Part shown: positions 1,332 through 25,427 of the stretch, piece by piece
How positions within the stretch are numbered: position 1 is the first letter of the stretch
How the letters are laid out: every line of letters begins with the position of its first letter
DNA from: a virus
DNA: 64,000 nucleotides
Strand: one strand, 5' to 3'
Virus record (IMG/VR): IMGVR_UViG_3300050016_000171
Coordinates: 1 to 64,000 of that record
Notes under the pieces: generated by a model
Seen by the model: the letters and a program-made list of their open reading frames with translations, nothing else
Told to the model about the DNA's origin: nothing
The model's database searches: none
Position numbers and translations under genes: made by a program

Positions 1332-1390
1332 TCGCAGCACGCCCTACCGCAGTACAATAGATGTTGCAGCACAATCAATGGAGAAAGGAC

Positions 1391-3487: not shown

Positions 3488-5607
3488 TGTATAACGAAGA
3501 GAAACTTAATGCCGCGCGCGCGACCCTCCAAGAGCGGGTGCTGACACCCATCGGCGAAATTCACACAGAGGATATGAAGAGGGACGAAGATACAGGGACG
3601 ATGCAGTTTGTCGATGAAGCGGCCTTGAAACTCGTTCTTGACGACGCCAATACCTGCGCCACGTATATCAACGTGAACCAGTGGGCGTCGGGTTGGACTC
3701 TCTCGGACGTGATCTATCAGTCGCCCGCCTCGGCGAGCGCCTTTGACGGCGGCAACGTGGCTCAGGCCAACGTCCCTAAGTTTACGGTCAGTAACCACCT
3801 GAGTTCCATCGTCCCGAAGATCATGGGCGGAATCTTTTACGAAGATCCCCCGTTCCTTCTGCGCCCCATGCCGGACACGGATGAGGATACGGTCAAGGTC
3901 AAGACTGCGATCTATTCCGAACAGCTTTGGGAGATGAAGTTCGAAGAAGAAACCGAACGCCTGCTGGATCAGATGGGTCTCTTAGGGACGTGTATCGCCA
4001 AGTGGGGATACGTCGAGTACACCAAGAAAACGAAGCGTTACGTCCGCATCGACGATCCCCTGACGATTGATATGCCATCTGGCGTGCAGCAACAGGAGAC
4101 ACCGGAGTCCGACGAGTTCAAAACCGTTCTCGACGACAGTCTCGTTTCGCACCCTTGGCTCAAGTACTGCGACATTCGTACGGTGATGGTTGACCCATCG
4201 TGCCGCTACGGCGACATTCGTCGCGCGCACTACGTCATCTATCGCGACTACGCGACGTGGACAGATCTGGATCATCTGCGCGGCATCGACGGATACAATA
4301 TCCCGACCGAAGCGGAATTGAGGGCTCTTTTCTTGTCCAACCCTTCGACGGGTGCGGACAACATCAGTTTGACGCTGCCCGAAGGCATGCGTGGTTATTT
4401 GCAGCACGCTGTTCCGCGAAGCTATAAGACGACCGCGGACCCGACCGGGAACGCCCTTGAAATCCTCGAACGGTGGGACAACGAGAAGGTTATCGTTGTG
4501 TTGTGCTTTAATGGTCACAACGTCCTCATCAGAAACGAGGCGAATCCGTACGGCAAGCTTCCATTCCTGAGCGCAAACTGGCGCAATATCCCAGACGCGT
4601 TCTACGGGCAGGGGCTGGGCCAACTCATAGGAAGTGAGCAGCTGGTTGAACAGGGCATCACGAACATCGCCCTCGACTTGCTCGCCTATGGTTTGCAGCC
4701 GACCGCGATTCGTAAGAAGGGCTTCAACACTCCGACGCAGAACATCCGCTGGAAGCAGGGCGGCATCATCGACGTCGATGAAGATGTGGACAAGGCGTTC
4801 AAGTTCCTGACAATGCCCCCGGTCCCCGGCGAAGCTTGGACATTCATTCAGCAGGCCCAGAGTGCGGGCGCAGCGACATCAGGCGCCAACGAACAGGTTG
4901 TGCAGGGTGCAGGCGGCATGGGCAACAAGGCGACAGGTATGCGCTCCGGCACCGGAGCGGCGGCTGTCGTACAGGCCAACGCGTCGCGTTTGGACGGCCC
5001 GACAGGAAGGTTCGTTCGGCAGATTTTCATTCCGTGGCTATACATCATGGACGAACTGAACAACGATTGCCTCCCGACTTCTGTTATGCGGAAGATCGCC
5101 GGTCAGGTAATGGCGAAGACCTACAAGTTGGATCAGTTCAAACTACGCAACGCCAAGATGGAGTACGAAGTTCTGGCTGGCACGAAGCTGGGCGCTAAGA
5201 AGGAAATGGCGCAGTTCCTGCCGATCATGTTGCAGATCTTCAACAACCCGACCTTCACGCAGGACTTGGCCGCAGCCGGATACATTTTCGATCCAGTCGC
5301 GATCTTCCGTGCTTTTGCGGATGCAGCAGGCTGGAAGTTCTCTCAGGCTTTCTTGAAGAAGATGACGCCGGAGCAAATGGCAACGGCGAAGTCCAACACC
5401 AAGGCAGCCCTCATGCAAATGCAGTTGCAGGCAAAGGGCCAGTCTCAACAGGCGCAGTTCGAGCACGAAGAGACGATGGAAGATTCGAAGCAACTCGGCA
5501 AGGCCGGGAACGAAGTCCTCCGTCAGTCTATCGAGCAAGCCACCACGCCCGAGGAAGTTCAGGGCGAGCCCGGCGGTTCGGGGTTCGGTTCCACGCAAGC
5601 AATCTAA
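3487..5607 (+). CDS. portal protein (podovirus/P22-like)
   Basis: 706 aa, follows terL with overlapping TAG/GTG; portal-like RNEANPYGKLPF...PDAFYGQGLG segment and Gln-rich C-terminal coiled coil. Confidence 0.85.
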   Translation: MYNEEKLNAARATLQERVLTPIGEIHTEDMKRDEDTGTMQFVDEAALKLVLDDANTCATYINVNQWASGWTLSDVIYQSPASASAFDGGNVAQANVPKFTVSNHLSSIVPKIMGGIFYEDPPFLLRPMPDTDEDTVKVKTAIYSEQLWEMKFEEETERLLDQMGLLGTCIAKWGYVEYTKKTKRYVRIDDPLTIDMPSGVQQQETPESDEFKTVLDDSLVSHPWLKYCDIRTVMVDPSCRYGDIRRAHYVIYRDYATWTDLDHLRGIDGYNIPTEAELRALFLSNPSTGADNISLTLPEGMRGYLQHAVPRSYKTTADPTGNALEILERWDNEKVIVVLCFNGHNVLIRNEANPYGKLPFLSANWRNIPDAFYGQGLGQLIGSEQLVEQGITNIALDLLAYGLQPTAIRKKGFNTPTQNIRWKQGGIIDVDEDVDKAFKFLTMPPVPGEAWTFIQQAQSAGAATSGANEQVVQGAGGMGNKATGMRSGTGAAAVVQANASRLDGPTGRFVRQIFIPWLYIMDELNNDCLPTSVMRKIAGQVMAKTYKLDQFKLRNAKMEYEVLAGTKLGAKKEMAQFLPIMLQIFNNPTFTQDLAAAGYIFDPVAIFRAFADAAGWKFSQAFLKKMTPEQMATAKSNTKAALMQMQLQAKGQSQQAQFEHEETMEDSKQLGKAGNEVLRQSIEQATTPEEVQGEPGGSGFGSTQAI

Positions 5608-7422: not shown

Positions 7423-8367
7423 ATGAGCGGTCCTACACCCTCAGCATCTAACGTCGGAAACGTTCTGACGGCTCAGGCAATTCTGTTCGACAAAGAATTG
7501 ATCCCGAACCTGAAGGGCGAAACTGACGCATTCGTAACCGTCGCAGAGCGGCGCGTTCAACCCCTGCACATGGGTATCAACCGTACCTTCTTCCAGTACA
7601 ATACACTGGCCGGAGATACTTCCCAGTCAGCGGACGGCGTGGTCGGTTCTCCGATGGAAGTCACCCAGATCAGTTCCCCCGCGCAAGTCGGCGAGTGGAA
7701 CAACTATTCCAACTTCAGCTCGTTCGCCATTGCTTCGGCAATCGATGAGTTGGTTGGCAATAGCGCAGTGGAACTCGGATATCAGGCTGGACAGAGCATT
7801 TCCGAACTGTACAGCACGGTAGCTGACTCCGCGGCGGCAGTGGACAGCACGGTCAACCAGAGTGGTTTGCTGGCAACGCCGTTCACCCTTGATCTCGCAA
7901 CGATCCGCGAGATGAAGCAGCAGCTCGTCAGCAATGACGTTCTGCCCTGCAAGAAAGGCAAGTTCATGGGCGCGATCAGCCCGAACGTGTTGGGAGACAT
8001 CTACAACGCGACGACTGTCAACAACTCAATCGTCGATCTGTGGAAGTACGCCAACATGAGCAAGTTCGACGAAATGGCTGGTTCTGACCAGACGAAAGAA
8101 ATCGAGTTGCCGGGCACGAACGTTGTGTTCCGTCAGACTCCGTTCGTCACGCAGACTCCGAACTACAGCGGATCGGGTTCCATCGCTTTCCGTACGTATG
8201 TGTTCGGTAACTATGCCATGATCGGCGTTTGGCTCGAAGTTCCGGGCGACACCGATTTGGATGAAGGCGATTGGCGCACCATCGACTGCAAAGTCGTGAC
8301 TGATGCTCCTCCGTCGTCTTTCGATCCGACAGCAACAATCGGCGGCTGGTGTGCTTACAAGTTTCAT
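7423..8367 (+). CDS. major capsid protein (N4-gp56-like), exon 1
   Basis: Position after the scaffold; capsid-like segments QVGEWNNYSNFSSFA and ELGYQAGQSISEL; interrupted after ...YKFH by a group I intron. Confidence 0.8.
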
Positions 8368-8582
8368 CGATCTGGTGCCCTCGCGGCGTAATCCGCGATG
8401 CGGAATCTTGGGTAATTGGCTTGAACCCCCGAGTGGGGAACAAGGCGGAAGTCGAAAGACACCGTGAGAGACTAAACCCTGAGACGGCCTTTGGGCCGAT
8501 GCGATAGTCCGACCATACGGAACAACAACCGTATGAAGCAAACAGAAATGATTTGCTCCACTGAAAAGTGAGTAACAATACG
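8368..8582 (+). ncRNA. group I self-splicing intron (215 nt, no ORF)
   Basis: 5' exon ends in U and the intron ends in G; P7 GACUA/UAGUC (agagactaaa...gcgatagtccg); P1 CAU:GUG with U-G wobble; P10 exon 2 CAGA pairs with IGS UCUG; P2, P5, P6a (gtc-gaaa-gac), P8 and P9 hairpins visible; removal restores the reading frame. Confidence 0.92.
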
Positions 8583-8774: not shown

Positions 8775-9413
8775 ATGTTTGTTTATCTGATTACGAATAG
8801 CATCAACGGAAAGAAGTATGTAGGTCAGCACTCCGGAAATGACCTGGATAAGTACTGGAGTCATTGTGTCGCCCACGCTTTAAGAGGCAGCAGTGATAAG
8901 CCGTATCTGTACAATGCCGTCCGAAAATACAGACCTGAAAATCTCTGTATTAAACCCCTCGTAATAGTTGGGACTAAATGGGAAATGGATTTGTATGAGA
9001 AAGGGATGATAAAAGCTCTTAACACCCGAAAGCCGTTTGGATATAATATCACAGAAGGCGGAGACGGCGTTCTTGGTTTGAGGCATTCCGAAGAATCAAA
9101 TCAGAAAAACAGAGAAGCGCATTTAGGTCGAAAAGACTCTCCTGAGACCATAGAGAAAAAGAGAGCGGTATGGGTTGGGCGCAAACATACGGAAGAGACT
9201 AAATTAAAAATGTCTCTACATGTTAAATCAGAAGAACACCGAAAAAAGATTTCAATTGCGAAGATGGGGAACACAGCAAGACTGGGTATGAAAAATACAA
9301 CACACTCTAGGCGTCCTAGGTCTGTTGAAGTGAGACTGAAAATGTCTGAGGCGCAAAAGCGTCGCAGAGAAAGAGAAAGGCAAGACGATGGCAATACAGT
9401 TGGCAGGCGGTAA
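8775..9413 (+). CDS. free-standing GIY-YIG homing endonuclease with NUMOD3 repeats
   Basis: FVYLITNSINGKKYVGQ, GYN motif, repeats such as GRKHTEETKLKMS and KSEEHRKKIS; AT-richer than its neighbours. Confidence 0.9.
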   Translation: MFVYLITNSINGKKYVGQHSGNDLDKYWSHCVAHALRGSSDKPYLYNAVRKYRPENLCIKPLVIVGTKWEMDLYEKGMIKALNTRKPFGYNITEGGDGVLGLRHSEESNQKNREAHLGRKDSPETIEKKRAVWVGRKHTEETKLKMSLHVKSEEHRKKISIAKMGNTARLGMKNTTHSRRPRSVEVRLKMSEAQKRRRERERQDDGNTVGRR

Positions 9414-10065
9414 GAAGCAGAACTGGTCAATCAATGAGGAGTACAAAAACATTGACGACCCACTTCGCAGTACCGGCATGAACAATAGTACGACGAAAGA
9501 GTCCATTAAGCAATTACTCGCTGGCGGAACGCCAGACTGGGTTTCGCATCCTGAGGACTACAAGAATTTCGTCAAAGAATCGTTTGCCGCAGAAAAAGAG
9601 ATGTCGGATCAGCAAGTCGAAGGCTACAAGATGGATCATCAAGACCTGTTGACGGATGAGAAGCCACGCAAGGTTCACATCATCACAACTCGGGACTTCA
9701 TCAAAAAGCTGAGAGACAACGGGGTTCGCTGCTTCACGGTCGATAATGGTTTGGCCGGGACGGTGGGGCTCTGGGCAGCGCGTGGCACCCAAATGGTCTA
9801 CGTCTGCTACTTGCAAATTCCGTGTATGTACGAATGGTCTGTCCTCAGGCTGGACGCCCACAACCTACCCAATGGTGAACGATTTCGGGGTTGGCGTACT
9901 GTACTGATGCAACTGATCGTCAAGAACATCATGAGTGAAGAGAAGGTCCACAAGATTTTCGGTAAGCCGACTGGCGGAATTGTCAGCAGCATTTACCGGA
10001 AGACGCTGTGGTCCCGTCGCAACAAGAAGAGAGTAGCAGAACCATCCGCCGACCTGACAACCTAG
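9388..10065 (+). CDS. hypothetical phage protein
   Basis: 225-aa ORF colinear with the structural operon. Confidence 0.7.
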   Translation: MAIQLAGGKKQNWSINEEYKNIDDPLRSTGMNNSTTKESIKQLLAGGTPDWVSHPEDYKNFVKESFAAEKEMSDQQVEGYKMDHQDLLTDEKPRKVHIITTRDFIKKLRDNGVRCFTVDNGLAGTVGLWAARGTQMVYVCYLQIPCMYEWSVLRLDAHNLPNGERFRGWRTVLMQLIVKNIMSEEKVHKIFGKPTGGIVSSIYRKTLWSRRNKKRVAEPSADLTT

Positions 10066-10118
10066 TCAGGAACCGGATTACACACACTGGTGCAGTATAA
10101 GACAGTGTTGGAGTCGAA

Positions 10119-10670
10119 ATGGCAAACAAAGCAGAAAAGGACGAGGCAGTAAAGGCAGCAACGGCAGATTCAGTGCCAGCAAAGATTACAGAAGAGCAAC
10201 AGCGTGACTTGCTGTTCCGCAGTCTTCTGCGTCGTGAAGAAGCAGCCGCGAAAGCGGAAACCGCGCAAGCGGAAGCAGGCATCGCCCGCCAGAAACAGCG
10301 CGCGATCAACACGCTGAACCGCAACAACAAGCTGTTTGCAAAGCAGTCGCGTTGCACCCACTTGAAGGGCGGCAGAGTTAAGTCGAAGACGGGGATCAAG
10401 GATTACGCCCTGTTCTATCACACATACATCGATCAGACCCAGAAGATCGGTTGCTTCATTTGCAAGATGCGTTGGACACCGCAAGACACGATAGAGTATC
10501 TTGTCCGCAACGGTCGAAAGAAACGGAATCACACGCGAATCGGTTGGATGGAAGCATTGGAACTGTTCGCGCAGTCGAGCAACACGCCTAGCCAGTCAGA
10601 AATTCCCCACAAGCCTATTGAGTTCAAGAGCGCCGAGGGAGAGGACATGGGAGAGGCGACACCAGAGTAA
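10119..10670 (+). CDS. hypothetical protein with CxH/CxxC motifs
   Basis: GGAG RBS; CTHLKGG and CFIC motifs. Confidence 0.7.
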   Translation: MANKAEKDEAVKAATADSVPAKITEEQQRDLLFRSLLRREEAAAKAETAQAEAGIARQKQRAINTLNRNNKLFAKQSRCTHLKGGRVKSKTGIKDYALFYHTYIDQTQKIGCFICKMRWTPQDTIEYLVRNGRKKRNHTRIGWMEALELFAQSSNTPSQSEIPHKPIEFKSAEGEDMGEATPE

Positions 10671-10684
10671 GCGCGACACATATA

Positions 10685-10711
10685 GAGGCGGTGGGTTACT
10701 CCTACCGCCTC
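10685..10711 (+). terminator. GC-rich hairpin, possible terminator
   Basis: GAGGCGGTGGG-ttact-CCTACCGCCTC just after the stop codon; U-tract is weak. Confidence 0.5.
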
Positions 10712-10730
10712 GAAACTTTAAGGGGATGAC

Positions 10731-12203
10731 ATGGGACAGACACCGAATGTAGGCTTGTGGACGCGTGGTCCGATGAACGGCGGGTCCGGCCCGTCTACGC
10801 CCACCTTCGAATGGGACTTTGATTACAACATGAACGCCCTCGACGCTGCCATAGGCGCGTTACAGAAGGGCGGCGGCGGAAGCAGCCAGCCTTGGGTCAT
10901 CCAGCCCGTACTCAGTGCGGCACGCACAGTCACGGATGGCGTTCTCAACTCCACCACCCTAATCACCTCCGCAACAGCTAAGTTCACGCAGGCGGATGTT
11001 GGCGCATGTATTTTCTTGCTTGGGGCGAGTGTTGGCTTGATCCCAGTTGTCGGAGGAATACAGCCCACGATCATCAGTGTTCAAAATTCTACCACCGCAA
11101 CTATTTCGGCAGTACCGGGTGGCGGCGCTGTATTGGGCGTCACTTTCGTTATTGGGCAGGATAACTCTGCGGCGCTGAACGCGGCGATGGTGAAGGCCGT
11201 AGCGGCTTCCGGCGTGCTACTTGTTCCGGCAGGCCAGTTCATTATCAATCAACTCAATTTGTTTGGAGCGGCGACAACCAATGCCACAGGTGCCTTCGCG
11301 GTTAAGGGCGCGGGCTACGGGCAGAGTCAATTGCTGCCATCTCCGTATTTAGCACCAACTCCGACTGCACCAATCGTTCAGTTCTCGTCTGGCACGATGA
11401 CGTGGGACGGGTTGGACATGAACTGGATGCGGATAAGCGCCTATCAAACAGGGTCGTATCCGTATCAGGGCGGGGGCTCCGGCATTTCATTTAACGGCGC
11501 TGCCCGAGTACAAAATTGTCAGTTCGTGGGTTGGTCGGCCCCGAACGCGGTTACTTTTGAATGCGATTCGGACGACCTCAACATACAAGATGTCGATGTG
11601 TGGCTTAACCAGAACACAGCCTCTGTGATCCACAGTCTGAATTTTCGAGCCAACAATTGCTATTTTCAGGGCAACTATGGCATGGTCATTGGGGACTTGA
11701 GTTGGGGCAAAGTCACAAACTGTACGATTCGCGGAAACGCGGCCGGCCTCATGCTCACAGGATTCTCGGGCGGCGGGACCGACAACTATTTTGTAAATTG
11801 CCGTTTCTCGGGTCAGTGGAACATCTATAATCCGGCTACGGGCGGAATCGTTTGCGCGTCCTTTATTGGCTGTTCTTTTACTGCCGATGCAGCGACGCCG
11901 GGTTTTACTCCTGCATTTGCAAACAGCGGCGGTCTGAAAACTCTCGGAACCGGAGGCACGTATAACTTCACGAACTGCCGATTTGGATGCGCCGGGACTT
12001 ACGACGCAATCGATAACTTGAGTGGAAACACGGTCGTCTTACAAGGATGTCAATTCGTCAACTACACGACTCCGGTCAACTACAAGTGGACCGGAAAATC
12101 GATTGTTAACCCTCTCGGCGCCACATTGTTCGATGGCGGCGGGAACCATAATTTGCTTTCGAATATGACCCAGAACGGGACGCTTGTCACTGGATCGAAT
12201 TAA
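10731..12203 (+). CDS. tail spike-like right-handed beta-helix (pectate-lyase-like) protein
   Basis: GQDNSAALNAAM...LLVPAGQF entry motif followed by repeated NCxF beta-helix rungs. Confidence 0.7.
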   Translation: MGQTPNVGLWTRGPMNGGSGPSTPTFEWDFDYNMNALDAAIGALQKGGGGSSQPWVIQPVLSAARTVTDGVLNSTTLITSATAKFTQADVGACIFLLGASVGLIPVVGGIQPTIISVQNSTTATISAVPGGGAVLGVTFVIGQDNSAALNAAMVKAVAASGVLLVPAGQFIINQLNLFGAATTNATGAFAVKGAGYGQSQLLPSPYLAPTPTAPIVQFSSGTMTWDGLDMNWMRISAYQTGSYPYQGGGSGISFNGAARVQNCQFVGWSAPNAVTFECDSDDLNIQDVDVWLNQNTASVIHSLNFRANNCYFQGNYGMVIGDLSWGKVTNCTIRGNAAGLMLTGFSGGGTDNYFVNCRFSGQWNIYNPATGGIVCASFIGCSFTADAATPGFTPAFANSGGLKTLGTGGTYNFTNCRFGCAGTYDAIDNLSGNTVVLQGCQFVNYTTPVNYKWTGKSIVNPLGATLFDGGGNHNLLSNMTQNGTLVTGSN

Positions 12204-12293
12204 TGCTCTCAACCTTCCTGCATCAAACCCAACAGAACAAAATTTCCTGCAAGCTTAACCCCAGCTGCGGAAATTTTGTATTGGTGAGCTAAC

Positions 12294-13346
12294 ATGCCTA
12301 CGGCCATTAATCTTTTGTCGAACGTGGGAGTTGCGGTTTTGGCGGGCTCCACAATCGTCAACACAGGTAACACGGTTCTCAATGGTGATTTGGATTTAAG
12401 TCCGGGCAGTGTCGTATCGGGTTTTCCTCCCGGCATCGTGACCGGCGCACAGCACGTTGACGATCCGACCGCTGTTCAGTCTCAACTTGATCGGACGACT
12501 GCGTACAACCAAGCAGCCGCCGCTTCGCCTGCCACCCCTATAGCGTCCGCTTTGGACGCTGTGACTCTCAACGCAGGTATATACTCAGCGGGTACGTTCT
12601 CGCTCGCGGGTGGCACTCTCACGCTGGACGCGCAGGGCAACGCAAACGCCGTCTGGATCTTCCAGATGTCAACTACGCTCATCACCGCGGCGGGCTCGAC
12701 CGTTCGAATTATCAACGGGGGTTCGGCACTGAATGTTTTCTGGCAAGTGGGCAGTTCGGCGACAATAGGCGCCAACAACACTTTTCTGGGGGCAATTCTC
12801 GCAGCGGCTTCGATTACACTGACCCCAAGCGGCACCACGGTTACAGGTCATTTGCTTGCCTCCGCTGAAGTCTCCCTTGGCGACGCTGAAGTTATCTTGC
12901 CCGCAGCAACAACGTATTTGATTTCAGGCAACGCGGGTCACGCGGGCGTGACCGTCAATTTGACGGGGGCGGCGACGGGAACCACCACGTCAGACATTTT
13001 GGGCAACTATCAGTTCACGGAACTCGTCAACGGAACTTATACCGTCACACCGGTTCTTTTGGGGTATGCGTTCGTCCCCGTTAACCGTTCGCCAGTCATC
13101 AATGGCGCGAACCAGACGGGCGCGAATTTCGTAGCGACTCTCTTGGCGTACAGCGTCCCCGATGACAGGGATTATTCTGTGTTCCCCAATACCGCTATCG
13201 ATGTTCAGGGCACGGAGACTTATGTGGTCCCTACCCATCCGAGCCGTACAGAGCCCGTTGACAGTCGAGAGAATAAACCTGTTGACAGTCGTAAGTCACC
13301 AAATATCCCGGAGAATTCGAGAACGAATCCTCCCTTCGAGAGTTAA
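12294..13346 (+). CDS. DUF3494 (IBP-1) ice-binding-domain protein with Ig-like domain
   Basis: [61 protein letters not shown]; then GNYQFTELVNGTYTVTP; no signal peptide. Confidence 0.9.
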   Translation: MPTAINLLSNVGVAVLAGSTIVNTGNTVLNGDLDLSPGSVVSGFPPGIVTGAQHVDDPTAVQSQLDRTTAYNQAAAASPATPIASALDAVTLNAGIYSAGTFSLAGGTLTLDAQGNANAVWIFQMSTTLITAAGSTVRIINGGSALNVFWQVGSSATIGANNTFLGAILAAASITLTPSGTTVTGHLLASAEVSLGDAEVILPAATTYLISGNAGHAGVTVNLTGAATGTTTSDILGNYQFTELVNGTYTVTPVLLGYAFVPVNRSPVINGANQTGANFVATLLAYSVPDDRDYSVFPNTAIDVQGTETYVVPTHPSRTEPVDSRENKPVDSRKSPNIPENSRTNPPFES

Positions 13347-13592
13347 ATGATAAACGTTTCTCTTGTTATCTCCATCGTGAGTTTGGCGGCTTCTGCGTAT
13401 GCGGTGTTTCGCGCGCCCCGCCACGTCACGACGACCCAACAGATCACGACAACCCACGAGACGACCCATACAGTGGCCCTCCCCGCTCCCGCAGTTTCGG
13501 GAAACGCGGTATGCTCCAAGTGCAACAGGGCGGTGGCGCGGTTCGAAGTTCAGGCCGACGCATCTGTGGTTTGCGCAAATTGTAAAAGGTAG
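13347..13592 (+). CDS. small membrane-anchored zinc-ribbon protein
   Basis: N-terminal TM segment; CSKC and CANC motifs. Confidence 0.6.
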   Translation: MINVSLVISIVSLAASAYAVFRAPRHVTTTQQITTTHETTHTVALPAPAVSGNAVCSKCNRAVARFEVQADASVVCANCKR

Positions 13593-13597
13593 GATTC

Positions 13598-15277
13598 ATG
13601 ACCGGACCATTAAATAGTTCGAAACCCACAACCAGCATAATCACTGGCGGCGTCTACAATGCTACGCTACCGGCCCCTCAGGATAAACAAGCCTGCGCAT
13701 TGCAGTTGGACTCCGCGGGAAACCTGAAGGTAAACGTTATCGTTGGTGGCGGTGGTGGTGGATCAAACGCCTCGGTGGGATTGAACGGCGTACTTGCACC
13801 CACGTCATCGACAGAAATTGGATTCATAGGTTCGGGTGGACTCGAAACTCCAGTCAGTGCAGCCAACCCACTGCCGATTACCGGAAGTATCAGCGCGACG
13901 AACCCCTCAGTCGGCGTGATTGGCGCAACTGCGCCCTCAGACGCCACGCTTCTCGGCGTCATTGATGCCAGCGGCAATTTGCAAGGCAACAGCGCGTCCA
14001 ATCCTGTTCGCACCGATCCCACGGGCACAACGATCCAGCCTGTGTCGGGTACGGTTGCCGTCTCCAACTTTCCGGCATCTCAGGTCGTCGCAGGAAACCT
14101 CACGAACAACAACGCGGTTCCCGGGGCCAACAATATTGGTGTGCTGTCTGCGGAGGCCGTGCCGTCCTACACAGCATTGACTTATAATTCTGGCGATATG
14201 GTTATGCCCGTCACCGATACTCACGGCGCGCTTAACGAAGACTTGCAGGCCGTCGCAGGCGTGGCTCTCGGCGCTACCGCAGTGGTGGCCTATGGCTCTA
14301 CGCCAGCCGCTGTGAACGTGCCCGGCGTGAATGCTTTTGTCACGAATTTTCCCGCTACTCAACCTATTTCGGGTACCGTCACTGCGTTACAGGGCACATC
14401 CCCATGGCTTGTGACTGGTTCGTTTTACCAGTCGGTGCAGCCGATTTCAGGCACGATTGCGATTTCAAACTTCCCGTCAGCCCAATCGGTTACGCAGGGA
14501 ACGTCGCCGTGGGTTGTGAGTGGAACGGTTTCTATTGCTTCTTTTCCTGCACTACAGAACGTTAATCTCACACAGTTGAATAGCGTTGCTTTGGGTTCGC
14601 CGTCCAACTATGGAACCTCGCCGGGCGCTGTTGCTGTGATCGGCGTGAATGCTTTTGTCACGAATCCCGTGGCTGTGACTGGGACTTTCTGGCAAGCTAC
14701 GCAACCTGTGTCGGGTACGATTGCGGCAACGCAATCAGGGACGTGGACTGTCGGTATTTCCGCTTCGCAGACTATCGCAGTTACGAATGCAGGGACATTC
14801 GCTGTGCAGGCCACCCTAGCGGCTGAAACCACAAAAGTCATCGGCACCGTCAATCAAGGCACGTCACCGTGGGTTGTCTCAGGCGCGGTTACAGTTGCCT
14901 CTACAACGATCACAGGCACAGTGGCGACAGTTGCCACACCGTCCACAACCGTGGGCGTGCTCAGCAACGTCCAACAGGCTCTGACGACTTCCATCAACAT
15001 TAAAGCCAGTGCGGGCAGCTTTTACGGATTTGATTGGTTCAACCCCAACGCGGTCACGGTTTACATTTTCATTTACAACACGGCGACTACGCCGGGGACG
15101 ATTGGCGCGACGACGGTCTTGATTTATCAGAAGGGACTTCCGGCAGGCGCAGGTTCGAACATCGAGTTCCCGATGGGGATTCCCTGTTCCGCGGGAATCG
15201 CAATCGCGGTGAGTACGTCTCCAACATCAGCAGCTGCTCCGTCAACAGGTCTGGTTCTCACGACCTTGTATGATTAA
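13598..15277 (+). CDS. fibre-like repeat virion protein
   Basis: Thr/Val/Gly-rich; NFPATQPISGT, QGTSPWVVSG and TGTFWQATQPVS repeats shared with 17183..19246. Confidence 0.65.
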   Translation: MTGPLNSSKPTTSIITGGVYNATLPAPQDKQACALQLDSAGNLKVNVIVGGGGGGSNASVGLNGVLAPTSSTEIGFIGSGGLETPVSAANPLPITGSISATNPSVGVIGATAPSDATLLGVIDASGNLQGNSASNPVRTDPTGTTIQPVSGTVAVSNFPASQVVAGNLTNNNAVPGANNIGVLSAEAVPSYTALTYNSGDMVMPVTDTHGALNEDLQAVAGVALGATAVVAYGSTPAAVNVPGVNAFVTNFPATQPISGTVTALQGTSPWLVTGSFYQSVQPISGTIAISNFPSAQSVTQGTSPWVVSGTVSIASFPALQNVNLTQLNSVALGSPSNYGTSPGAVAVIGVNAFVTNPVAVTGTFWQATQPVSGTIAATQSGTWTVGISASQTIAVTNAGTFAVQATLAAETTKVIGTVNQGTSPWVVSGAVTVASTTITGTVATVATPSTTVGVLSNVQQALTTSINIKASAGSFYGFDWFNPNAVTVYIFIYNTATTPGTIGATTVLIYQKGLPAGAGSNIEFPMGIPCSAGIAIAVSTSPTSAAAPSTGLVLTTLYD

Positions 15278-15288
15278 GGGGAACTGAG

Positions 15289-16062
15289 ATGGCGATTGCA
15301 GTCAACGGGTTGTACACCCCCAATTTCTTTTATAGTTTGGGGCCCGGGCCGGGCAATAACACCGCGACTACAGCCTCCTATAACCAAGCGGCGGGGAACC
15401 TGATTGTGGTTGCTGTTTCTTCTTATGGCAGCCCCAACGACGGCGCTCCGTGGACTGTTACGGACGCGGCGGGGAACACATACGTTGCTGGTACGCGGTT
15501 TGATCCGGGCATCAATCGTGCAGTGCAGTTTTTTTGGGCAAAGAATTGTCTTGGAAACGTCATAAACCAGATAACCGTAAACGCCACGCTTGCCTCCGGG
15601 GGTTTTGCTTTCTTTATATCCATCTGCGCGTGGGACATTTCTGGCGCTGCACTGGTTACCCCTAATTGCGGCGAAGCGATGGGATGGCAAGCTGCTCCCG
15701 TCACATCACCGATAGCAACAGGGGCTGGCGCAGGATCGTCGAATCTGACGACCACCAAGGCCAATGCTATTATTTTAGCATTCGGAACTCAGAATGATTA
15801 TGGCGCCCCTATCGGTACGCGCACGGCACAAACGAGTCCGGCGTATACTTTGGATGGTGTCGATTGGAGTGCTTCCTACGATGCGCTGATTTATGAGCAT
15901 CTTGTTGTCGCAGCGATTCAATCGGGGGTGAGTGTCAATTTCAACACCACAGACACAGCTTCTTCGGGCATCATCGTGGTGGAGGCATTTGCATCAGCGA
16001 CACAACCGTCCGTGGGCGGTCCCATCGAACTGATGATGATGGGTTGTGGAGATCCGAGGTAA
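15289..16062 (+). CDS. beta-rich putative virion/tail protein
   Basis: GNLIVVAVS...VTDAAGNTY beta-sandwich-like pattern; lies in the tail module. Confidence 0.6.
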   Translation: MAIAVNGLYTPNFFYSLGPGPGNNTATTASYNQAAGNLIVVAVSSYGSPNDGAPWTVTDAAGNTYVAGTRFDPGINRAVQFFWAKNCLGNVINQITVNATLASGGFAFFISICAWDISGAALVTPNCGEAMGWQAAPVTSPIATGAGAGSSNLTTTKANAIILAFGTQNDYGAPIGTRTAQTSPAYTLDGVDWSASYDALIYEHLVVAAIQSGVSVNFNTTDTASSGIIVVEAFASATQPSVGGPIELMMMGCGDPR

Positions 16063-16086
16063 TTTTAGATTGAGGAGCAAGCAGCA

Positions 16087-17181
16087 ATGGCTATGACTGT
16101 TTTACCTTTTCTTCCCGTGCCATTTTTAATCGAAGGCGATGGGTCTGCCACATCCGTCAGCTATACGTTGACTTTCACCCCGACGGTTGTGGTTCTCGTC
16201 AGTGCTACGAAAGAGAACCCGCTGGGGGCAGTTTATGGCTCTGTCGATGTCTCCTCGAACATCTCTTCGATCATGCTTGCTGGGAATGTTATCACTTTCA
16301 ATTTTGTTGCGGCGTTCACTGGTAACATTGTAGTCGCGGTCGATTTCAACACGCCGTTGGGTGGTGGCGTCGGCGCGGGCACGGGACAACTGGTCAATCA
16401 GGGCGCGCAGGGCACCATCGCTGCTTCGTGGTTCACGGAACTTACGGACGGCGCATCAGTGCTTGGCGTATCGGCGAACCCACTGTACGTTCAAGGCGCC
16501 ATTTCAAATTTTCCTGCAACTTCTGTCTTCGTGGGCACTGTTCCGAGCACGGCACCAGCCAACACAGCTCTCGTAGGAAGCATTTACAATGCGACGGCTC
16601 CCGTAGCGGCTACGGGCAAAGTGATGCCGCTTCAGTCCAACAGTAACGGAGCCCTGTATGTTGAGGCTACGAGTCGTGAATACACCTATCGCGCGTGTCA
16701 GAGCGCGTTCACTCCGCTCGCCGACGTGGCGATCCCTTTTTTCGTCATTCAAGGTTCTGCGAGCGCGACAGTCAAGATTCGTCACATCAAAATCACCTGG
16801 GCCTGCACTACAGGAAACGCGGCGCCCAACGTGATTCGATTGCGTCGGTACACTGTGATCAGCGGCGGTACACCAGCAGCCATGACTCCGGTTCCTGACG
16901 ACACAACCAATCCGTCGGCAACGGCAGTCGTATCTCAATACACCGTGTTGCCCACAACAGGGACGCCGTACAACGCGGGTGCGACGAGTTCAGAGTATAT
17001 GCAGTGGATTACAAACGCGGCGGGGTTGGTTGGTCCCGTTGCCGTTCAGTGGGAGTTTGGGGTCAACGGCTGTCAGCCGATTGTGCTTCGGGGTACATCT
17101 GAGTTTGCTGGAATTGAAATTTCGGCGGTCGCAGCGGGTGGCCCTCTTATGACTGTGCGCGTATCATGGACAGAGGAATAA
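16087..17181 (+). CDS. putative tail/fibre protein
   Basis: N-terminus resembles that of 17183 (LIEGDGSAT vs LLQGDGAT); ISNFPAT motif. Confidence 0.6.
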   Translation: MAMTVLPFLPVPFLIEGDGSATSVSYTLTFTPTVVVLVSATKENPLGAVYGSVDVSSNISSIMLAGNVITFNFVAAFTGNIVVAVDFNTPLGGGVGAGTGQLVNQGAQGTIAASWFTELTDGASVLGVSANPLYVQGAISNFPATSVFVGTVPSTAPANTALVGSIYNATAPVAATGKVMPLQSNSNGALYVEATSREYTYRACQSAFTPLADVAIPFFVIQGSASATVKIRHIKITWACTTGNAAPNVIRLRRYTVISGGTPAAMTPVPDDTTNPSATAVVSQYTVLPTTGTPYNAGATSSEYMQWITNAAGLVGPVAVQWEFGVNGCQPIVLRGTSEFAGIEISAVAAGGPLMTVRVSWTEE

Positions 17182-17182
17182 A

Positions 17183-19246
17183 ATGGCAATTCGACAGGTA
17201 GTTCCGATCTCGATTCTTTTGCAAGGCGATGGTGCTACGGGCACTTTCGTTTTTTACTTGGGCGATGTTTATCAGATATCTTCGGGTTCGGCAGTGGATT
17301 ATGGTTCGCTGGGTGTTATCCCCACGGGCATCGAAATCCCCAATCCGCCCGCGCCACTAATAAGCGCCACGATAGATGCAGGCGGAAATATTACAATCAC
17401 GTTGGTCAGTCCGATTCCTGCGGGACAGATTTTGAATTTCGTATTGAACCTGCTGTTTAACAGTGGTGATTCAACCCCATTTCCTATACCATTTCCTATT
17501 ACAACTACTATGGTGGAGAACTTTCCAGCGACTCAGCCAGTTTCAATTGTCGCGCCTGTAGCGGTTACGCAATCTACTTCCCCTTGGGTTGTGACTGATG
17601 CCGCAGCCGAAGGATATCTCGCCACAATTGCGGGTGCTATCTCAGCGGGCAAGATAGCAGTCAGCGGAACGATTGCGGCAACGCAGTCTGGTGCGTGGAC
17701 TGTTACCGCTACGAACACCGGAACCTTCGCCGTTCAGGTCACTTCGGGAACGGTTACAACCACGCCTCCGCTCAACGCGACGACGAACATCACACTGTGG
17801 AACACCGTTGCTTTGGGCTCGCCGACCGCCTATGGAACGGCTCCGAGCGGAAACGTCATAGGCGTCAACGCTTTCGTCACAAACTTCCCCGCGACTCAGC
17901 CCGTGTCGATTGCGGCACCTGTAGCGGTAACTGGAACTTTTTGGCAGGCAACGCAACCCGTCAGCGGAACTTTCTGGCAGACAACGCAGCCTGTATCCGG
18001 CATCATCGCGGCGACACAATCAGGGGCTTGGTCCGTCGGCATCACGACATTGGGCCAGCAACTCGCGGCAGCGTCTGTTCCTGTTGTCTTGACAGCCGCC
18101 CAGATTGCGGCACTGACCCCGCTCTCCACGATTGCCGTTTCCAACTTTCCGGCATCTCAGGCCGTGACTGGTACGTTCTGGCAGGCTACACAGCCTGTCT
18201 CTATCGCCACCATGCCGTCCACTCCTGTGACTGGAGTTTTCTGGCAGACGACGCAGCCTGTGTCGGGAACCATTGCGGTTTCGAACTTTCCGGTATCTCA
18301 GGCGGTGACTGGTACATTCTGGCAGACTACTCAGCCGGTCTCTATCGCAACACTTCCTGCTTTGACTGCGGGCACGGCTGTCATCGGTCACGTCATTGTG
18401 GACTCGGCGCCGACCACGGCGGTCACAGGAACGTTCTGGCAGGCCACTCAACCAGTTTCCATTGCATCCATGCCGTCCACCCCTGTTACCGGAGTTTTCT
18501 GGCAGGCAACGCAGCCAGTAGATGGCGCGCTGACGAACAACAACGCTGCGCCTGCTGCGACGCTTCAGGGTGTGCTGGGCGCAATTGCCGAGACCGCTTA
18601 TGCGACAGTCACGTATACGACAGGCGATATGGTTCTGCCCGTCACTGATCTGCACGGCGCGCTCAACACTGATCTACAAGCCATCGGGGGTGTCGCTGTT
18701 GTTGCGGCAACGGCGGGCGTACAGAAAGTGGGTATCGTTGGAAGTGCTGGCACAGTGTTTGACGGCCCTATTACAGCTGCTGGTGCCCCGGCGAACGGTC
18801 TCGCGGTTTTGCACGTATACGAGTCCACTGCACCAGCGTTGACAACAGGTCAATCGGTGGCGGCGCAATGCGATTCTGCGGGCAGTCTGTTTGTCAAGCC
18901 GCTTCGGCGTAGTCAAACTGTCTCTAAAGCCACGACCATTATAACTACAGGAGCCACATCGATTCTGGCCGCGCAGGCGGCGGGTACTTTTGCCGACATA
19001 TCATCCTTGATTGTTTCGGCTGCGGATACCACTTCGCGCAGCCCATTCACTATCACGTTGTCGGATGGTACCAATTCTTATATTTATGACATGGATTCGA
19101 ACGCGTCTGCGGGGTGCCAATTCATGAATCTCGTATTTAACCCGCCGCTTCCCGCAACGTCTGCGGCGACCGCGTGGACGCTCAATTTGAGCGTAGCGAC
19201 GACCGTTCATGTCACAGTTATAGCGATTTTGCAGAAAGCTAGTTAG
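17183..19246 (+). CDS. fibre-like repeat virion protein
   Basis: Seven FWQ[AT]TQPV repeats plus blocks shared with 13598..15277. Confidence 0.65.
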   Translation: MAIRQVVPISILLQGDGATGTFVFYLGDVYQISSGSAVDYGSLGVIPTGIEIPNPPAPLISATIDAGGNITITLVSPIPAGQILNFVLNLLFNSGDSTPFPIPFPITTTMVENFPATQPVSIVAPVAVTQSTSPWVVTDAAAEGYLATIAGAISAGKIAVSGTIAATQSGAWTVTATNTGTFAVQVTSGTVTTTPPLNATTNITLWNTVALGSPTAYGTAPSGNVIGVNAFVTNFPATQPVSIAAPVAVTGTFWQATQPVSGTFWQTTQPVSGIIAATQSGAWSVGITTLGQQLAAASVPVVLTAAQIAALTPLSTIAVSNFPASQAVTGTFWQATQPVSIATMPSTPVTGVFWQTTQPVSGTIAVSNFPVSQAVTGTFWQTTQPVSIATLPALTAGTAVIGHVIVDSAPTTAVTGTFWQATQPVSIASMPSTPVTGVFWQATQPVDGALTNNNAAPAATLQGVLGAIAETAYATVTYTTGDMVLPVTDLHGALNTDLQAIGGVAVVAATAGVQKVGIVGSAGTVFDGPITAAGAPANGLAVLHVYESTAPALTTGQSVAAQCDSAGSLFVKPLRRSQTVSKATTIITTGATSILAAQAAGTFADISSLIVSAADTTSRSPFTITLSDGTNSYIYDMDSNASAGCQFMNLVFNPPLPATSAATAWTLNLSVATTVHVTVIAILQKAS
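17925..18520 (+). repeat. degenerate coding repeats (TG[TV]FWQ[AT]TQPV)
   Basis: Seven imperfect copies of the tt[ct]tggcag...cagcc/caacc motif inside the CDS. Confidence 0.8.
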
Positions 19247-19283
19247 CGGAAGAAGTAAAAATCGCAGTTCAGGAGGAAGTACA

Positions 19284-19490
19284 ATGGGCGTCACGAAACA
19301 AGCAGTACCAGAAAAGGCAGCATCGAAGTTGAATCCGCTTCAAGTTGTTGAATCAGAAATAGCCAACTTCATTACGCAACGCGATCAGACCGCGGCAAAC
19401 CTCAATGCGCTTAACGGCGCGATTCAGGCCTCTCAGCATATTTATGCGAAGTTGAAGGCAGAAGCGGAGAAGGTCGAAGAAGTCGAGTAG
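19284..19490 (+). CDS. small coiled-coil protein (possible fibre chaperone)
   Basis: AGGAGG RBS; ANLNALNGAIQ heptads; follows the fibre genes. Confidence 0.6.
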   Translation: MGVTKQAVPEKAASKLNPLQVVESEIANFITQRDQTAANLNALNGAIQASQHIYAKLKAEAEKVEEVE

Positions 19491-19500
19491 GTAAAGGGAA

Positions 19501-20610
19501 ATGCTTAACACACAGAGTACGGTTACGCTGCAACGGATAGTCAATATCGCACTCGCGTTCGGAGACATCGAGCCCGTTTTGAACACTTCGGGTGACTCGT
19601 CCGAACCAGCGTTGACGATTGCCAACGACGTGATGAACGCGATCTGCGGGACGTCCTTCCCGGGCAAGTGGAACGAACTTGTCCTGCCGCCGTTCTATAC
19701 GAACAGTTGGCAGCAGGATTATGCCGTTGTTTATCCCGCGAATTGGACCCCGGGCCAGCCTGCTGCGGGCCAGTCTCTTACGAATCTGGCGTGGCTTACC
19801 CGCGGCATTTGTGTGGACATCAACAGCGATTCCTTCCCCAAACCGTTTCGTGAGGTAGAGGTAGGCCGCGAGTTGCAGCAGAACCCGGGCGCGAACTATA
19901 TCGCGGACATGGGTTCGTCCGGGGGCGGCAATCCTCTTTTCTTAGCCAACTTCTTCCCCAACCACACTCTGTACTACGGCACGTGGGGCGCGCTGAACAA
20001 CGGCACGCAGAGCATCGGTAATAACCCCGGGCCGGGCTCAGCATACACGACCCCCTTGGGGTCGCAGAGCATGCCCTCAAATCCGATTACGCAGATTCAG
20101 GATGCGAACGGAAACTTGCTCGTGCTCACCACTTACGGCATCGAGGGTAGCGCGGCACCGGTCCTTGCGGCGAACTCGCCAGCAGGTACGACGGTCTCCG
20201 GCACCGGCGCAACCACGCAGTGGACGGTTGTCGATCCTTGGGGCCAAGGTTTCCGTATCAATCCTACGCCTTCGCAGACAGGCGCGGTATGGCAGTTCCT
20301 TCTGATCGGTCAGGCTCAGCCGGTTCGGTTCACATCTTTGAGTCAGACGCTGTTTCCGCTCCCAGATCAATACGAACCCAATTTCCGGCAGGGATTCATT
20401 GCGCAGTGCTATCGATATTCGACGGACAGCAAGATCCGCGGCAAGTTCAAAGATGAGTGGCAACTTTGGTTGGCGTCTATGGTGGAATTGCGCGCGAAAC
20501 AGGATCGTGAATTGGAAGAGAACATCTTCGTCCCCGACCGCGGTATCATGGGCGGTCAACAGCGTCGTGCCGGACTGTGGCGCGGCGGCGGGTATCCGTA
20601 TCAGTACTAA
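19501..20610 (+). CDS. putative head-tail adaptor / tail tubular protein A-like
   Basis: EPALTIANDVM...KWN...QQDY pattern, paralogous to 20620; upstream of the nozzle gene. Confidence 0.55.
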   Translation: MLNTQSTVTLQRIVNIALAFGDIEPVLNTSGDSSEPALTIANDVMNAICGTSFPGKWNELVLPPFYTNSWQQDYAVVYPANWTPGQPAAGQSLTNLAWLTRGICVDINSDSFPKPFREVEVGRELQQNPGANYIADMGSSGGGNPLFLANFFPNHTLYYGTWGALNNGTQSIGNNPGPGSAYTTPLGSQSMPSNPITQIQDANGNLLVLTTYGIEGSAAPVLAANSPAGTTVSGTGATTQWTVVDPWGQGFRINPTPSQTGAVWQFLLIGQAQPVRFTSLSQTLFPLPDQYEPNFRQGFIAQCYRYSTDSKIRGKFKDEWQLWLASMVELRAKQDRELEENIFVPDRGIMGGQQRRAGLWRGGGYPYQY

Positions 20611-20619
20611 GGACTGACA

Positions 20620-21339
20620 ATGCCATACACGCTTCAAAATACGATTAACTGGGCACAGACGTTCATCGAGTACTCTCCCCTGACTGCGGGAGTCGCCAAC
20701 GAGCCTGCGATCTCAGTCGCGAACATGATTGTTTCGACGATCACGAACGCCCCGCTCACGTGGGCTTGGAATCGCAAGGAATATGGCGGGCTCACCCTCG
20801 TCACTTCGCAACAGGACTATGTGGTCACTATTGCTGACTTCAGCTTCCTCGAAAAAGTCACGCTGACCACTGCGGATGCTAAATATGCCTTTGATGTGAA
20901 GGACGTGTACAACACCACTACTTTGGGTGTTTCGGTTTCGAAACCCGCTGAGCCCAAAGGCGTTTCAGTTCACTTGGTGCAGTACGGCACGAACGTGACT
21001 CTGCGTTTTATGGCAATCCCGGATCAAGCCTACACATCAGTTATCACGTATCAGACTTTGATTCCCGATATGTCTTCGCTGGGCGCGACGTGGCCCCTCC
21101 CCTCACAGTACAAGGATATCTTCAACAACCTTTTCGCCGCGGAAGCGTATCAGGCGGTGGACGACGACCAGCAGGCGCAGCGTTATCGCATGCGCGGCGT
21201 GGCGGCTCTTCTGGCTAAGGCCGAGGGCTTGAGCGAAATGCAGCGCAACTCTGTACTGGCCCAGTTCTTGGTTCGCGGCAGTCAGACGCAGGCCCAGCAA
21301 CTTCGGACCCAGCAGGGCACACAGGCACGCGGACAATAA
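20620..21339 (+). CDS. putative head-tail adaptor / tail tubular protein A-like
   Basis: EPAISVANMIV...WAWN...QQDY and PDQAY motif typical of podovirus adaptors. Confidence 0.6.
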   Translation: MPYTLQNTINWAQTFIEYSPLTAGVANEPAISVANMIVSTITNAPLTWAWNRKEYGGLTLVTSQQDYVVTIADFSFLEKVTLTTADAKYAFDVKDVYNTTTLGVSVSKPAEPKGVSVHLVQYGTNVTLRFMAIPDQAYTSVITYQTLIPDMSSLGATWPLPSQYKDIFNNLFAAEAYQAVDDDQQAQRYRMRGVAALLAKAEGLSEMQRNSVLAQFLVRGSQTQAQQLRTQQGTQARGQ

Positions 21340-24300: not shown

Positions 24301-25427
24301 CGAATGGTTGTCAGATGGTTCAGAGCGTGGAAGTGCGCGCGGGAATCAAGAAGCTGCTCGTGGGTGCAACCACGGGCGGCGAACAAATCCTTCAGCGCGA
24401 TCTTTCTATTTTTACAGATGGCGGCTCTTCGCTCAGTCCTTCGCCTATTAACCTATTGACGGCAGCCACATACGGCGTTCTGGCGGGCACCACGATTACG
24501 AACTCTGGTCCTACTACCATCACTGGCGACTTGGGGCTCAGCCCCGGTAGCGCCGTAACGGGCGCGCCCACGGTGACGGGAGCTACGAACATCGACAACC
24601 CGGCTGCGGTTCAGGCCAAGACGGATTTGACTACGGCGTACACCCAAGCTGCCGCGTATCCCGGAGCGACGATTATTCCGACAGAGTTGGGCGGCACGTC
24701 TCTCGGGCCCGGAGTCTATACGAGCGCGTCGGGTACATTCTCCATAACGACGGGAACCCTGACCCTCAACGCCGGTGGCGACCCCAATGCCTTTTGGATC
24801 TTCCAAATGGCGACTACTTTGGTGACGGGCACAGGCACCTCCGTAGTTCTGACCGACAGTGCGCAGTCTCTTAATGTGTTCTGGCAAGTCGGCAGTTCTG
24901 CTACGATTGGCGTCAGTTCGACTTTTGTGGGAACCATACTCGCGCTCACATCTATTTCTGTGAATACAAGTGCCACAGTGACCGGGCGATTGCTGGCTCG
25001 GAATGGCGCAGTGACGATGTTGAGTAACGGCGTTACGGTATCCACATCAACTGTTGTGGGCACGATGTATGACGCCAACTTCACGATGGGCAGCATCGTG
25101 TTGGCTCATCCGGGACAGATAGCTGCTTTGAAATTCCTTGAGATGGACATGTCGGGAGTTTCGTATCGGCCCGTAGTGAGTTGTCTCTTGAACGAGATTG
25201 CTGGTACGTTTACGCCCATGGCGTTGATTCCGCAGTTTGATCCACCGTCGATTTACGGGGCGACTCTTTCGCCGACGAGTTATTCGCCGAACCGATATTA
25301 CTTCGCGTCTACGGGAAAGTTGGCGCGTTGCCGTCATCTTCAAATCAACGTGGACTTTGGCATGACTCCGAATCAGGACATGATCTATAATCTTTGCATT
25401 TTTGGCCGCCTTTTCGTAGAATTTTAG
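21339..25427 (+). CDS. tail nozzle / tubular protein B-like protein with inserted DUF3494 domain
   Basis: 1362 aa after the adaptor; propeller-like core ([28 protein letters not shown]); DGxVxW repeats; DUF3494 at about 24444-25045. Confidence 0.7.
25394..25422 (+). promoter_or_regulatory. sigma70-type promoter for the EndoVII gene
   Basis: TTGCAT-17 bp-TAGAAT inside the 3' end of the nozzle gene. Confidence 0.55.

Follow-up and report, generated by a model that had tools for sequence, protein, structure and literature searches.

Organization of the gene at 12294–13346

The window analyzed here is a 64,000-nucleotide stretch of viral DNA (positions 1 to 64,000 of IMG/VR record IMGVR_UViG_3300050016_000171), and the gene of interest, at positions 12294–13346, encodes a 350-residue protein in which an ice-binding domain of the DUF3494 family is followed by an immunoglobulin (Ig)-like domain and a conserved C-terminal module (Table 1). 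The ATG at 12294 is the earliest start codon downstream of the preceding in-frame stop, and therefore a leader cannot be hidden upstream of the open reading frame (ORF); a weak ribosome-binding site (RBS), GGTGAG, lies 6–7 nt to its 5′ side, and no convincing promoter or terminator was seen between the gene and its co-directional neighbors. By a crude rule based on Lys and Arg no signal peptide is present, as the first 35 residues contain neither of these (the first one seen is R67), and the hydrophobic N-terminal run corresponds to the first strand of the DUF3494 fold. The same rule assigns a signal-like N-terminus to 32 of 71 homologues.

The assignment of the N-terminal domain is robust. 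The Pfam family PF11999 (Ice_binding) matches residues 15–200 with E=6e-48 and 163.7 bits against a cut-off of 28.7, spanning profile positions 1–207 of 208, and the best sequence match in the PDB is EfcIBP (6eio; phmmer, residues 3–201, E=3.5e-37), with AnpIBP (7bwx) also matching (E=1.3e-31). An AlphaFold2 (AF2) model of the 350-residue protein, built on 72 sequences, has a mean predicted local distance difference test score (pLDDT) of 86; residues 1–285 are modeled with confidence and most of residues 1–280 score above 90. The right-handed β-helix that characterizes the DUF3494 fold is seen in residues 1–205 (pLDDT mostly >90), together with its helix at 58–76. Foldseek searches with the model return only DUF3494 ice-binding proteins (IBPs) among the top 30 matches, with template modeling (TM) scores of 0.94 (7bwx) and 0.88 (6eio).

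The second domain has a marginal SdrD_B match at residues 212–253 (30.2 bits against a cut-off of 29.7) and sub-threshold CarboxypepD_reg matches at residues 212–259, and Foldseek relates it to SdrD B, UafA, CnaB and transthyretin-like folds (E ~1e-3 to 1e-2). The C-terminal segment is of a different character. It begins with a hairpin part (YSVPDxR...FPN...VQGT..Y) and continues with PVDSR (321–325), PVDSR (329–333) and PENSR (339–343) motifs before a terminal PPFES, with PDDR at 289–292 and PSR at 316–318 as further elements; in the AF2 monomer model residues 290–350 fall to a pLDDT of about 50 or below and are disordered. The first-pass annotation of this DNA had described a leaderless DUF3494 start, a following Ig-like domain and a PVDSR/PVDSR/PENSR C-terminus, and all three hold: the Pfam and PDB alignments from residue 3, the ATG position and the signal rule agree on the start, SdrD_B above its cut-off and the Ig-type Foldseek matches on the second domain, and the conservation of the entire 67-residue C-terminus in 155 cluster representatives on the third.

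With the whole protein as query, no match was found among the INPHARED phages (tblastn) and no related locus in IMG/VR; PHROGs offers no family for it or for six neighboring proteins. Beyond DUF3494 and the Ig-like domain there is no match in Pfam, PHROGs or NCBIfam, including to Hoc or any other named decoration family.

A family of C-terminal DSR-repeat modules

Residues 284–350 alone were used as a phmmer query against 1.84 billion cluster representatives (clusters at 50% identity), giving 155 matches at E≤1e-3, 43 of them at E≤1e-10. The match is the extreme C-terminus in every one of the 155, in proteins ranging from 62 to 1306 aa, and because the whole 67-residue segment is conserved the motifs within it do not reflect chance. 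The consensus is AYSVPDxRxYxxFPNxxxxVQGTxxYTVPxxxSRxxxPVDSRxxxPVDSRxxxxIPQNSRT, then either PGTFGPGE or PPF(E/D)(S/D), and each segment contains 3–5 [D/N]-[S/C/D]-R motifs, with DSR occurring 300 times, NSR 137 times and DCR 128 times. Within the motif, serine and cysteine thus swap freely (DSR 300 versus DCR 128), whereas the positions on either side are fixed as Asp/Asn and Arg. We refer to this segment as the DSR module; it has no match in Pfam, PHROGs or NCBIfam, and a profile search of the PDB gave nothing at E≤10.

The DSR module also occurs by itself. Among 150 representatives, 20 are no longer than 85 aa and start with Met, and 17 of these 20 have a Met within six residues of the motif; the stand-alone ORFs are 62–81 aa in length. 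In one related locus (L001, 10001–10222) a 73-aa gene consisting of the module only has its own GAGGA RBS and is hemmed in by two genes, such that a cargo domain does not fit. The existence of such genes, one with its own RBS, indicates that the module is autonomous. As judged from these sequences, the DSR module is a family, defined in this analysis, whose members are encoded in a podophage clade, in the interval from the capsid genes to the adaptor genes. A role as a glycosylation sequon was considered and dropped, as the motifs do not match known bacterial sequons for N- or O-glycosylation, and so was a host sorting signal of the PEP-CTERM, LPXTG or type IX secretion system C-terminal domain type, as there is neither a hydrophobic segment nor a folded domain.

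Whether related phages fuse this C-terminal segment to other domains was raised in the first-pass annotation, and they do so with many unrelated N-terminal cargoes. Pfam searches with 130 module-bearing representatives identify CarboxypepD_reg-type Ig domains in 37, CHB_HEX_C_1/Fn3_assoc domains in 14, Laminin_G_3 (LamG) domains in 14, GDSL esterases in three, GH43 domains in three, and GH32N, TIG and Pentaxin domains in one each; the single Ice_binding cargo among the 130 is the 12294–13346 protein itself. Many module-bearing proteins consist of Ig and module only, opening straight into the Ig unit (M..ISGNAGVA). Two DUF3494 homologues (P0004 and P0006) carry LamG-like N-terminal extensions followed by DUF3494, Ig and module, and P0002, the nearest homologue (77% identity; contig of 97.7 kb), is composed of LamG, CHB_HEX_C, DUF3494 and Ig. 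These architectures suggest that cargo, spacer and C-terminal module are shuffled as separate units.

Genomic location of the module-bearing genes

A narrowed alignment of the DSR module retrieved 13 IMG/VR contigs of 6–101 kb, with which the ORFs of the window were compared by tblastn. All 13 are syntenic with the window phage, a podophage of roughly 100 kb, with portal proteins 57–66% and major capsid proteins (MCPs) 78–86% identical to those of the window. The shared order is terminase, portal, a scaffold-like gene, MCP, an optional endonuclease, homologues of the 9388–10065 and 10119–10670 genes, a variable stretch containing the module-bearing gene, a pair of adaptor-like genes, and a large nozzle-like protein. 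The module-bearing gene is located between the 10119–10670 homologue and the adaptor-like genes in 13 of 13 loci, the first adaptor-like gene starts no more than ~50 nt after its stop codon in eight of them, and in L001 and L007 the module-bearing gene is followed, as in the window, by a gene for a homologue of the window's 559-aa fiber-like protein.

The content of this slot varies greatly. Most relatives have 1–3 kb here, whereas the window, in which the stretch runs from 10671 to 19500, has a cassette of 8.5 kb and seven ORFs. In L014 the slot is empty, the 10119–10670 homologue being directly followed by an adaptor-like gene; on this comparison the module-bearing gene appears dispensable. 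A hidden Markov model of the module finds one gene per locus, with the exception of L009 and L010, which have two different module-bearing genes in tandem (9407–11128), and L014–L018, which have none. DUF3494 was not found in any of 17 related loci within the stretches compared, about 10 kb to each side of the match. The gene had been placed in the virion operon after the tail spike, and both the structural block and a spike-like gene upstream are indeed present, but it is the second of seven cassette genes rather than a lone one.

A second DUF3494 domain in the nozzle-like protein

The 1362-aa nozzle-like protein encoded to the right of the adaptor-like genes contains a second DUF3494 domain, with a PF11999 match at residues 1047–1233. 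In the nozzle-like proteins of L003–L006, L008, L013, L014 and Tunturiibacter phage Tunturi 3 both flanks align and the DUF3494 domain is missing, and the second copy is thus a lineage-specific insert. The two copies are 55% identical over 190 aa, which marks them as old, and a recent intragenomic duplication was rejected for this reason. In an IQ-TREE phylogeny of 71 rows, the sampling of which is biased towards matches of the first copy, this copy groups with P0002 and P0006 (SH-like approximate likelihood ratio test 98) and then with P0004 and P0042 (99), with the second copy as their sister (93). From these sequences the two look like old paralogues within one phage-associated clade. The proposal that two diverged copies reflect selection on an ice-interaction system is not supported as stated; repeated recruitment argues for selection to display the DUF3494 fold, whatever the ligand.

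Other genes in the region

The coordinates of the features discussed are given in Table 1. The 490-aa protein encoded at the left end of the cassette is predicted to be a right-handed β-helix of the pectate-lyase type with viral look-alikes, and is compatible with a tail spike, which we take as a lead only. The 559-, 364- and 687-aa proteins have internal repeat segments in common (up to 62% over 60 aa), and the 559-aa protein has an N-terminal segment of ~137 aa that is conserved in L001, L007 and L010 and looks like a classical N-terminal fiber anchor. Between the module-bearing gene and the 559-aa gene is an 81-aa ORF (13347–13592), which is absent from that place in L001 and L007; its product has a hydrophobic helix at the N-terminus and ends in a zinc-ribbon-like CxxC...CxxC segment. 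The adaptor-like genes (19501–20610 and 20620–21339) are paralogues with N-termini that are 32% identical over 68 aa, and the same pair is found as gp12/gp13 of Tunturi 3. Searches of PDB sequences with the MCP and the 369-aa protein gave nothing useful. The MCP homologues in L002, L009, L010, L011, L015 and L016 have inserts of ~200–900 bp at differing positions, and the window MCP ORF (322 aa) diverges from the family consensus after H315, its homologues being ~341 aa; both observations are compatible with intervening sequences, either introns or inteins, in this gene. The window also holds two homing-endonuclease genes.

Table 1. Positions of the module-bearing gene, its domains and neighboring features in the window
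Feature	Coordinates	Strand	Evidence or remarks
Complete ORF, 350 aa: DUF3494, Ig-like domain and conserved C-terminal module	12294–13346	+	ORF list, Pfam
DUF3494/IBP-1 β-helix, residues 3–203, long α-helix at residues 58–76, leaderless	12300–12902	+	Pfam, phmmer, AF2, Foldseek
Ig-like spacer domain of prealbumin/SdrD-B/CarboxypepD_reg type, residues ~207–285	12912–13148	+	Pfam, AF2, Foldseek
Conserved C-terminal DSR-repeat module, residues 284–350	13143–13343	+	phmmer, alignment, AF2
Trypsin-like (Trypsin_2) peptidase gene	298–993		just upstream of terminase
Large terminase	1361–3487		
SU10-type portal	3487–5607		
MCP	7423–8391	+	73–86% identical in related loci; conserved upstream flank; candidate docking partner
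Two conserved small genes, 225 and 183 aa	9388–10670	+	directly before the cassette in all relatives
Hypervariable accessory cassette, seven ORFs	10731–19246	+	conserved genes on both sides
β-helix spike-like protein, 490 aa	10731–12203	+	
Repeat-sharing fiber-like proteins, 559/364/687 aa	13598–15277, 16087–17181, 17183–19246	+	
Two SU10-adaptor-like genes, 369 and 239 aa	19501–21339	+	
Second DUF3494 domain, residues 1034–1233 of the 1362-aa nozzle-like protein (ORF 21339–25427)	24438–25037	+	

Relatives, hosts and habitats

The only cultured or deposited relative is Tunturi 3 (PP885686), and it is distant, with 36% identity in the MCP and 35% in the portal. This podovirus, which has a genome of 97.6 kb and a 77-nm head, was obtained from an Arctic tundra acidobacterium, and its relatives have been reported from non-Arctic, temperate US soils as well as from permafrost peat (PMC11924767). 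The MCP family as a whole is large and tight, with 279 clusters, the best 120 of the 279 being 74–96% identical and present on contigs of up to 107 kb. Relatives fall in metagenome-assembled genome (MAG) bins labeled as Bryobacterales, a betaproteobacterium and an 'uncultured archaeon', from which the host cannot be read; the first two bear Microflora Danica-style names, which we take to denote Danish, temperate samples. The module-bearing clade comprises soil phages, probably with Acidobacteriota hosts, and the lineage appears not to be confined to cold places.

The putative ice-binding face

The B-face of AnpIBP, which has been defined by experiment (PMC7277481), was mapped onto the 350-residue protein through the phmmer alignment to 7bwx. 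The corresponding rows read SVVS / STIVNT / AEVSLG / ASITLT / SSATIG / TTLITA, and 17 of the 20 residues that point outward are Thr, Ser, Ala or Gly. S154 and T157, which correspond to the critical S153 and T156 of AnpIBP, are retained in both DUF3494 copies. The sole oddity is E192, which places a charge where the consensus has Ala. A degenerate face had been named as grounds for abandoning the ice idea, and by sequence the face appears intact, flat and Thr/Ser-rich in both copies. These residues are the consensus of the 72 homologues, however, and the face therefore cannot discriminate ice binders from other members of the family.

A proposed C-terminally docked particle protein

We propose that the product of the gene is an accessory component of the particle that the phage can do without and that resembles a natural display construct. 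The ~65-aa C-terminal module, a predicted hairpin with 3–5 P-x-[D/N]-[S/C]-R motifs that would be unfolded when alone, may act as a docking element that becomes ordered on a conserved virion partner, with the capsid lattice as the first candidate and the adaptor or neck as the second. The Ig-like domain would serve as a spacer, and the N-terminal domain as an exchangeable, outward-facing adhesion module, which in the window phage is a DUF3494 β-helix; as the same fold is also inserted in the nozzle-like protein, the particle would display it at two places. In the AF2 model, the drop in pLDDT across the module relative to the confident residues 1–285 is commonly seen with peptides that fold upon binding. 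A conserved, autonomous, apparently unfolded C-terminus joined to an Ig-like domain and swapped cargo of the lectin or glycan-enzyme type, in a fixed slot, apparently dispensable and in places doubled, is what would be expected of a particle appendage, and the tandem module-bearing genes within one phage suggest many equivalent sites, which favors the capsid lattice; the enzyme cargoes and the fiber-like neighbors keep attachment at the neck or tail in play. The comparative data thus fit a dispensable, Hoc-like display protein with a putative C-terminal anchor, and we put the probability that the protein is attached to the virion through this module at about 0.55. The first-pass annotation had read it as a C-terminally anchored decoration protein of the virion, for which the module, the stand-alone genes, the slot and the apparent dispensability provide comparative support that falls short of proof; its presence in the virion, the docking and the docking partner are what we infer from them.

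Several observations weigh against this proposal. Tunturi 3 has neither the DSR module nor DUF3494, and the closest DUF3494 homologue, P0002, ends in a different C-terminus, showing that the module is not obligatory for this cargo. Most known fibers and spikes dock by their N-termini, GDSL and GH43 cargoes would be more usual on a tail spike than on a capsid decoration protein, and the position of the gene among fiber and spike genes makes attachment at the tail or neck as possible as at the head.

Two other explanations place the protein outside the particle or give its C-terminus another task. It could be a soluble late protein, released by lysis or acting intracellularly as an auxiliary host cryoprotection gene; the absence of a signal peptide would make release dependent on lysis, and published viromes list PF11999 as an auxiliary metabolic gene (AMG) (PMC11515562). 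We regard this as quite unlikely, however, as the gene lies within the structural block in a spike and fiber cassette, its Ig-module unit is shared with lectin-like and enzyme cargoes typical of virion appendages, the second DUF3494 copy is built into a nozzle-like protein, and it is hard to see what a soluble cryoprotectant would do with a conserved terminal peptide that is also encoded by itself. No more probable, in our view, is that the module serves in processing or assembly, for instance as a cleaved chaperone or propeptide or as a modification site, with docking by other means. A conserved C-terminus on diverse fiber-like proteins is a hallmark of intramolecular chaperones, as in endosialidase-type spikes, and the Arg and Ser/Cys residues of the motifs could be sites of cleavage or modification. 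But there is no match to Peptidase_S74 or any other family (Pfam, NCBIfam), the module is of ~65 aa and unstructured in the AF2 model rather than a folded domain of ~150 aa, stand-alone module genes make no sense for an intramolecular chaperone, and the N-termini are too variable to be a common anchor. The trypsin-like peptidase gene at 298–993 could supply the cleavage, but no homologue of it was seen in the related loci, and the module as its substrate was dropped on these grounds.

Attachment through the DSR module leaves the ligand to be considered, and ice binding by the displayed domains is a refinement of the docking proposal and not an alternative to it, the architecture being the same. 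A virion that is a multivalent ice binder might adhere to ice surfaces or brine and water films, or inhibit recrystallization and so survive freezing and thawing. The domain is ~50% identical to EfcIBP and 38–41% to AnpIBP, both characterized ice binders (thermal hysteresis has been measured for AnpIBP, and EfcIBP is classed as moderately active; PMC7277481), the flat, Thr/Ser-rich B-face is undegraded in both copies, and the fold has been recruited twice into putatively exposed virion positions in this lineage. Moreover, Tunturi 3, the sole cultured relative, infects a psychrotolerant tundra acidobacterium, and Arctic viral contigs are reported to carry PF11999 genes, which were interpreted as auxiliary cryoprotection genes and linked to cold waters (PMC11515562). 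We nonetheless consider true ice binding possible but less likely than not: the B-face is that of the family at large, with the charge of E192 added, and DUF3494 proteins often occur in warmer climates (PMC11645318), such that sequence cannot tell. The relatives of the window phage in Microflora Danica-style bins and those of Tunturi 3 in US soils point to temperate habitats, none of the 17 related loci has DUF3494 within ~10 kb of the match, and sister phages fill the same slot with glycan-binding or glycan-cutting modules. A still broader version, in which the DSR peptide is a universal plug-in anchor of the soil podophage clade that here covers the virion with functional ice-binding domains, is less likely again; if true, the anchor would be a natural counterpart of Soc/Hoc phage display, and the particle would adhere to ice or resist freeze-thaw damage.

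The presence of DUF3494 in proteins of the structural block shifts the reading of PF11999 on viral contigs from a host cryoprotection gene to a probable module of the particle surface. The DSR module is a sequence-defined, widespread and putative docking peptide that marks exchangeable accessory proteins, in phages that form a major and almost uncultured soil group; if the docking is true, it provides a ready-made display tag for these phages and a handle on what soil phages stick to. Whether a virus particle binds ice becomes testable with two short recombinant domains.

Relationship to known systems

The DUF3494 domain resembles EfcIBP (6EIO) and AnpIBP (7BWX/7BWY), capless single-domain proteins of the IBP-1 type that share with the 350-residue protein the fold, the long helix and the B-face rows, including an SSAT(I/L)G row with the residues whose mutation cripples AnpIBP. 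These two are secreted by Antarctic microbes and have measured activity, whereas the protein described here is phage-encoded and leaderless, with an Ig-like domain and a putative docking module. The PF11999 AMGs of Arctic viral contigs (PMC11515562) belong to the same Pfam family and were read without structural context, in contrast to the module in a structural block described here; in the literature searched, DUF3494 is nowhere described as part of phage structural proteins, and PF11999 on viral contigs appears only as an 'AMG'. The Peptidase_S74 spike chaperones are folded, auto-cleaving domains of ~150 aa, whereas the DSR module is of 65 aa, predicted to be disordered and without a match to them, and also occurs as a separate gene.

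An ice-binding domain with an adhesive rather than an antifreeze role has a precedent in MpIBP (MpAFP) of Marinomonas primoryensis, where it is the distal module of a long adhesin with sugar- and peptide-binding modules. The adhesin differs in having a Ca-dependent β-solenoid ice-binding fold, and in being bacterial and anchored to a cell instead of to a virus particle. MpIBP is named in PMC10523503 and PMC7277481.

In phage SU10, gp10, encoded between the MCP (gp9) and the adaptor (gp11), is a predicted Ig-like protein likened to minor capsid or head-fiber proteins, a putative particle component that was not seen in the SU10 map (PMC9509320). Its gene and the module-bearing gene have analogous positions relative to the SU10-type portal, MCP and adaptor. 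Tunturi 3 has the MCP, small genes, adaptor-like pair and large nozzle-like protein in the same order as the window, but without the DSR module or DUF3494, and its gp19 is without the insert. SU10 gp10 is not known to have a DSR module or exchangeable cargo.

The nearest textbook analogue in design is Hoc of phage T4, a dispensable outer capsid protein. Its Ig-like domains face outward and vary, its C-terminal part is conserved and binds the capsid, and a function in adhesion to glycans or surfaces has been suggested. Its Ig-like character has a counterpart in the Ig-like domain of the 350-residue protein; as regards dispensability, the comparative evidence consists of the empty slot of L014 and the absence of the module-bearing gene from Tunturi 3. 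Unlike Hoc, to which no sequence similarity was detected, the conserved end is a repeat peptide of ~65 aa that is unstructured in the model, and the cargoes include enzymes and a β-helix. The protein would be a Hoc-like modular appendage that combines a new, putatively docking peptide with a DUF3494 cargo.

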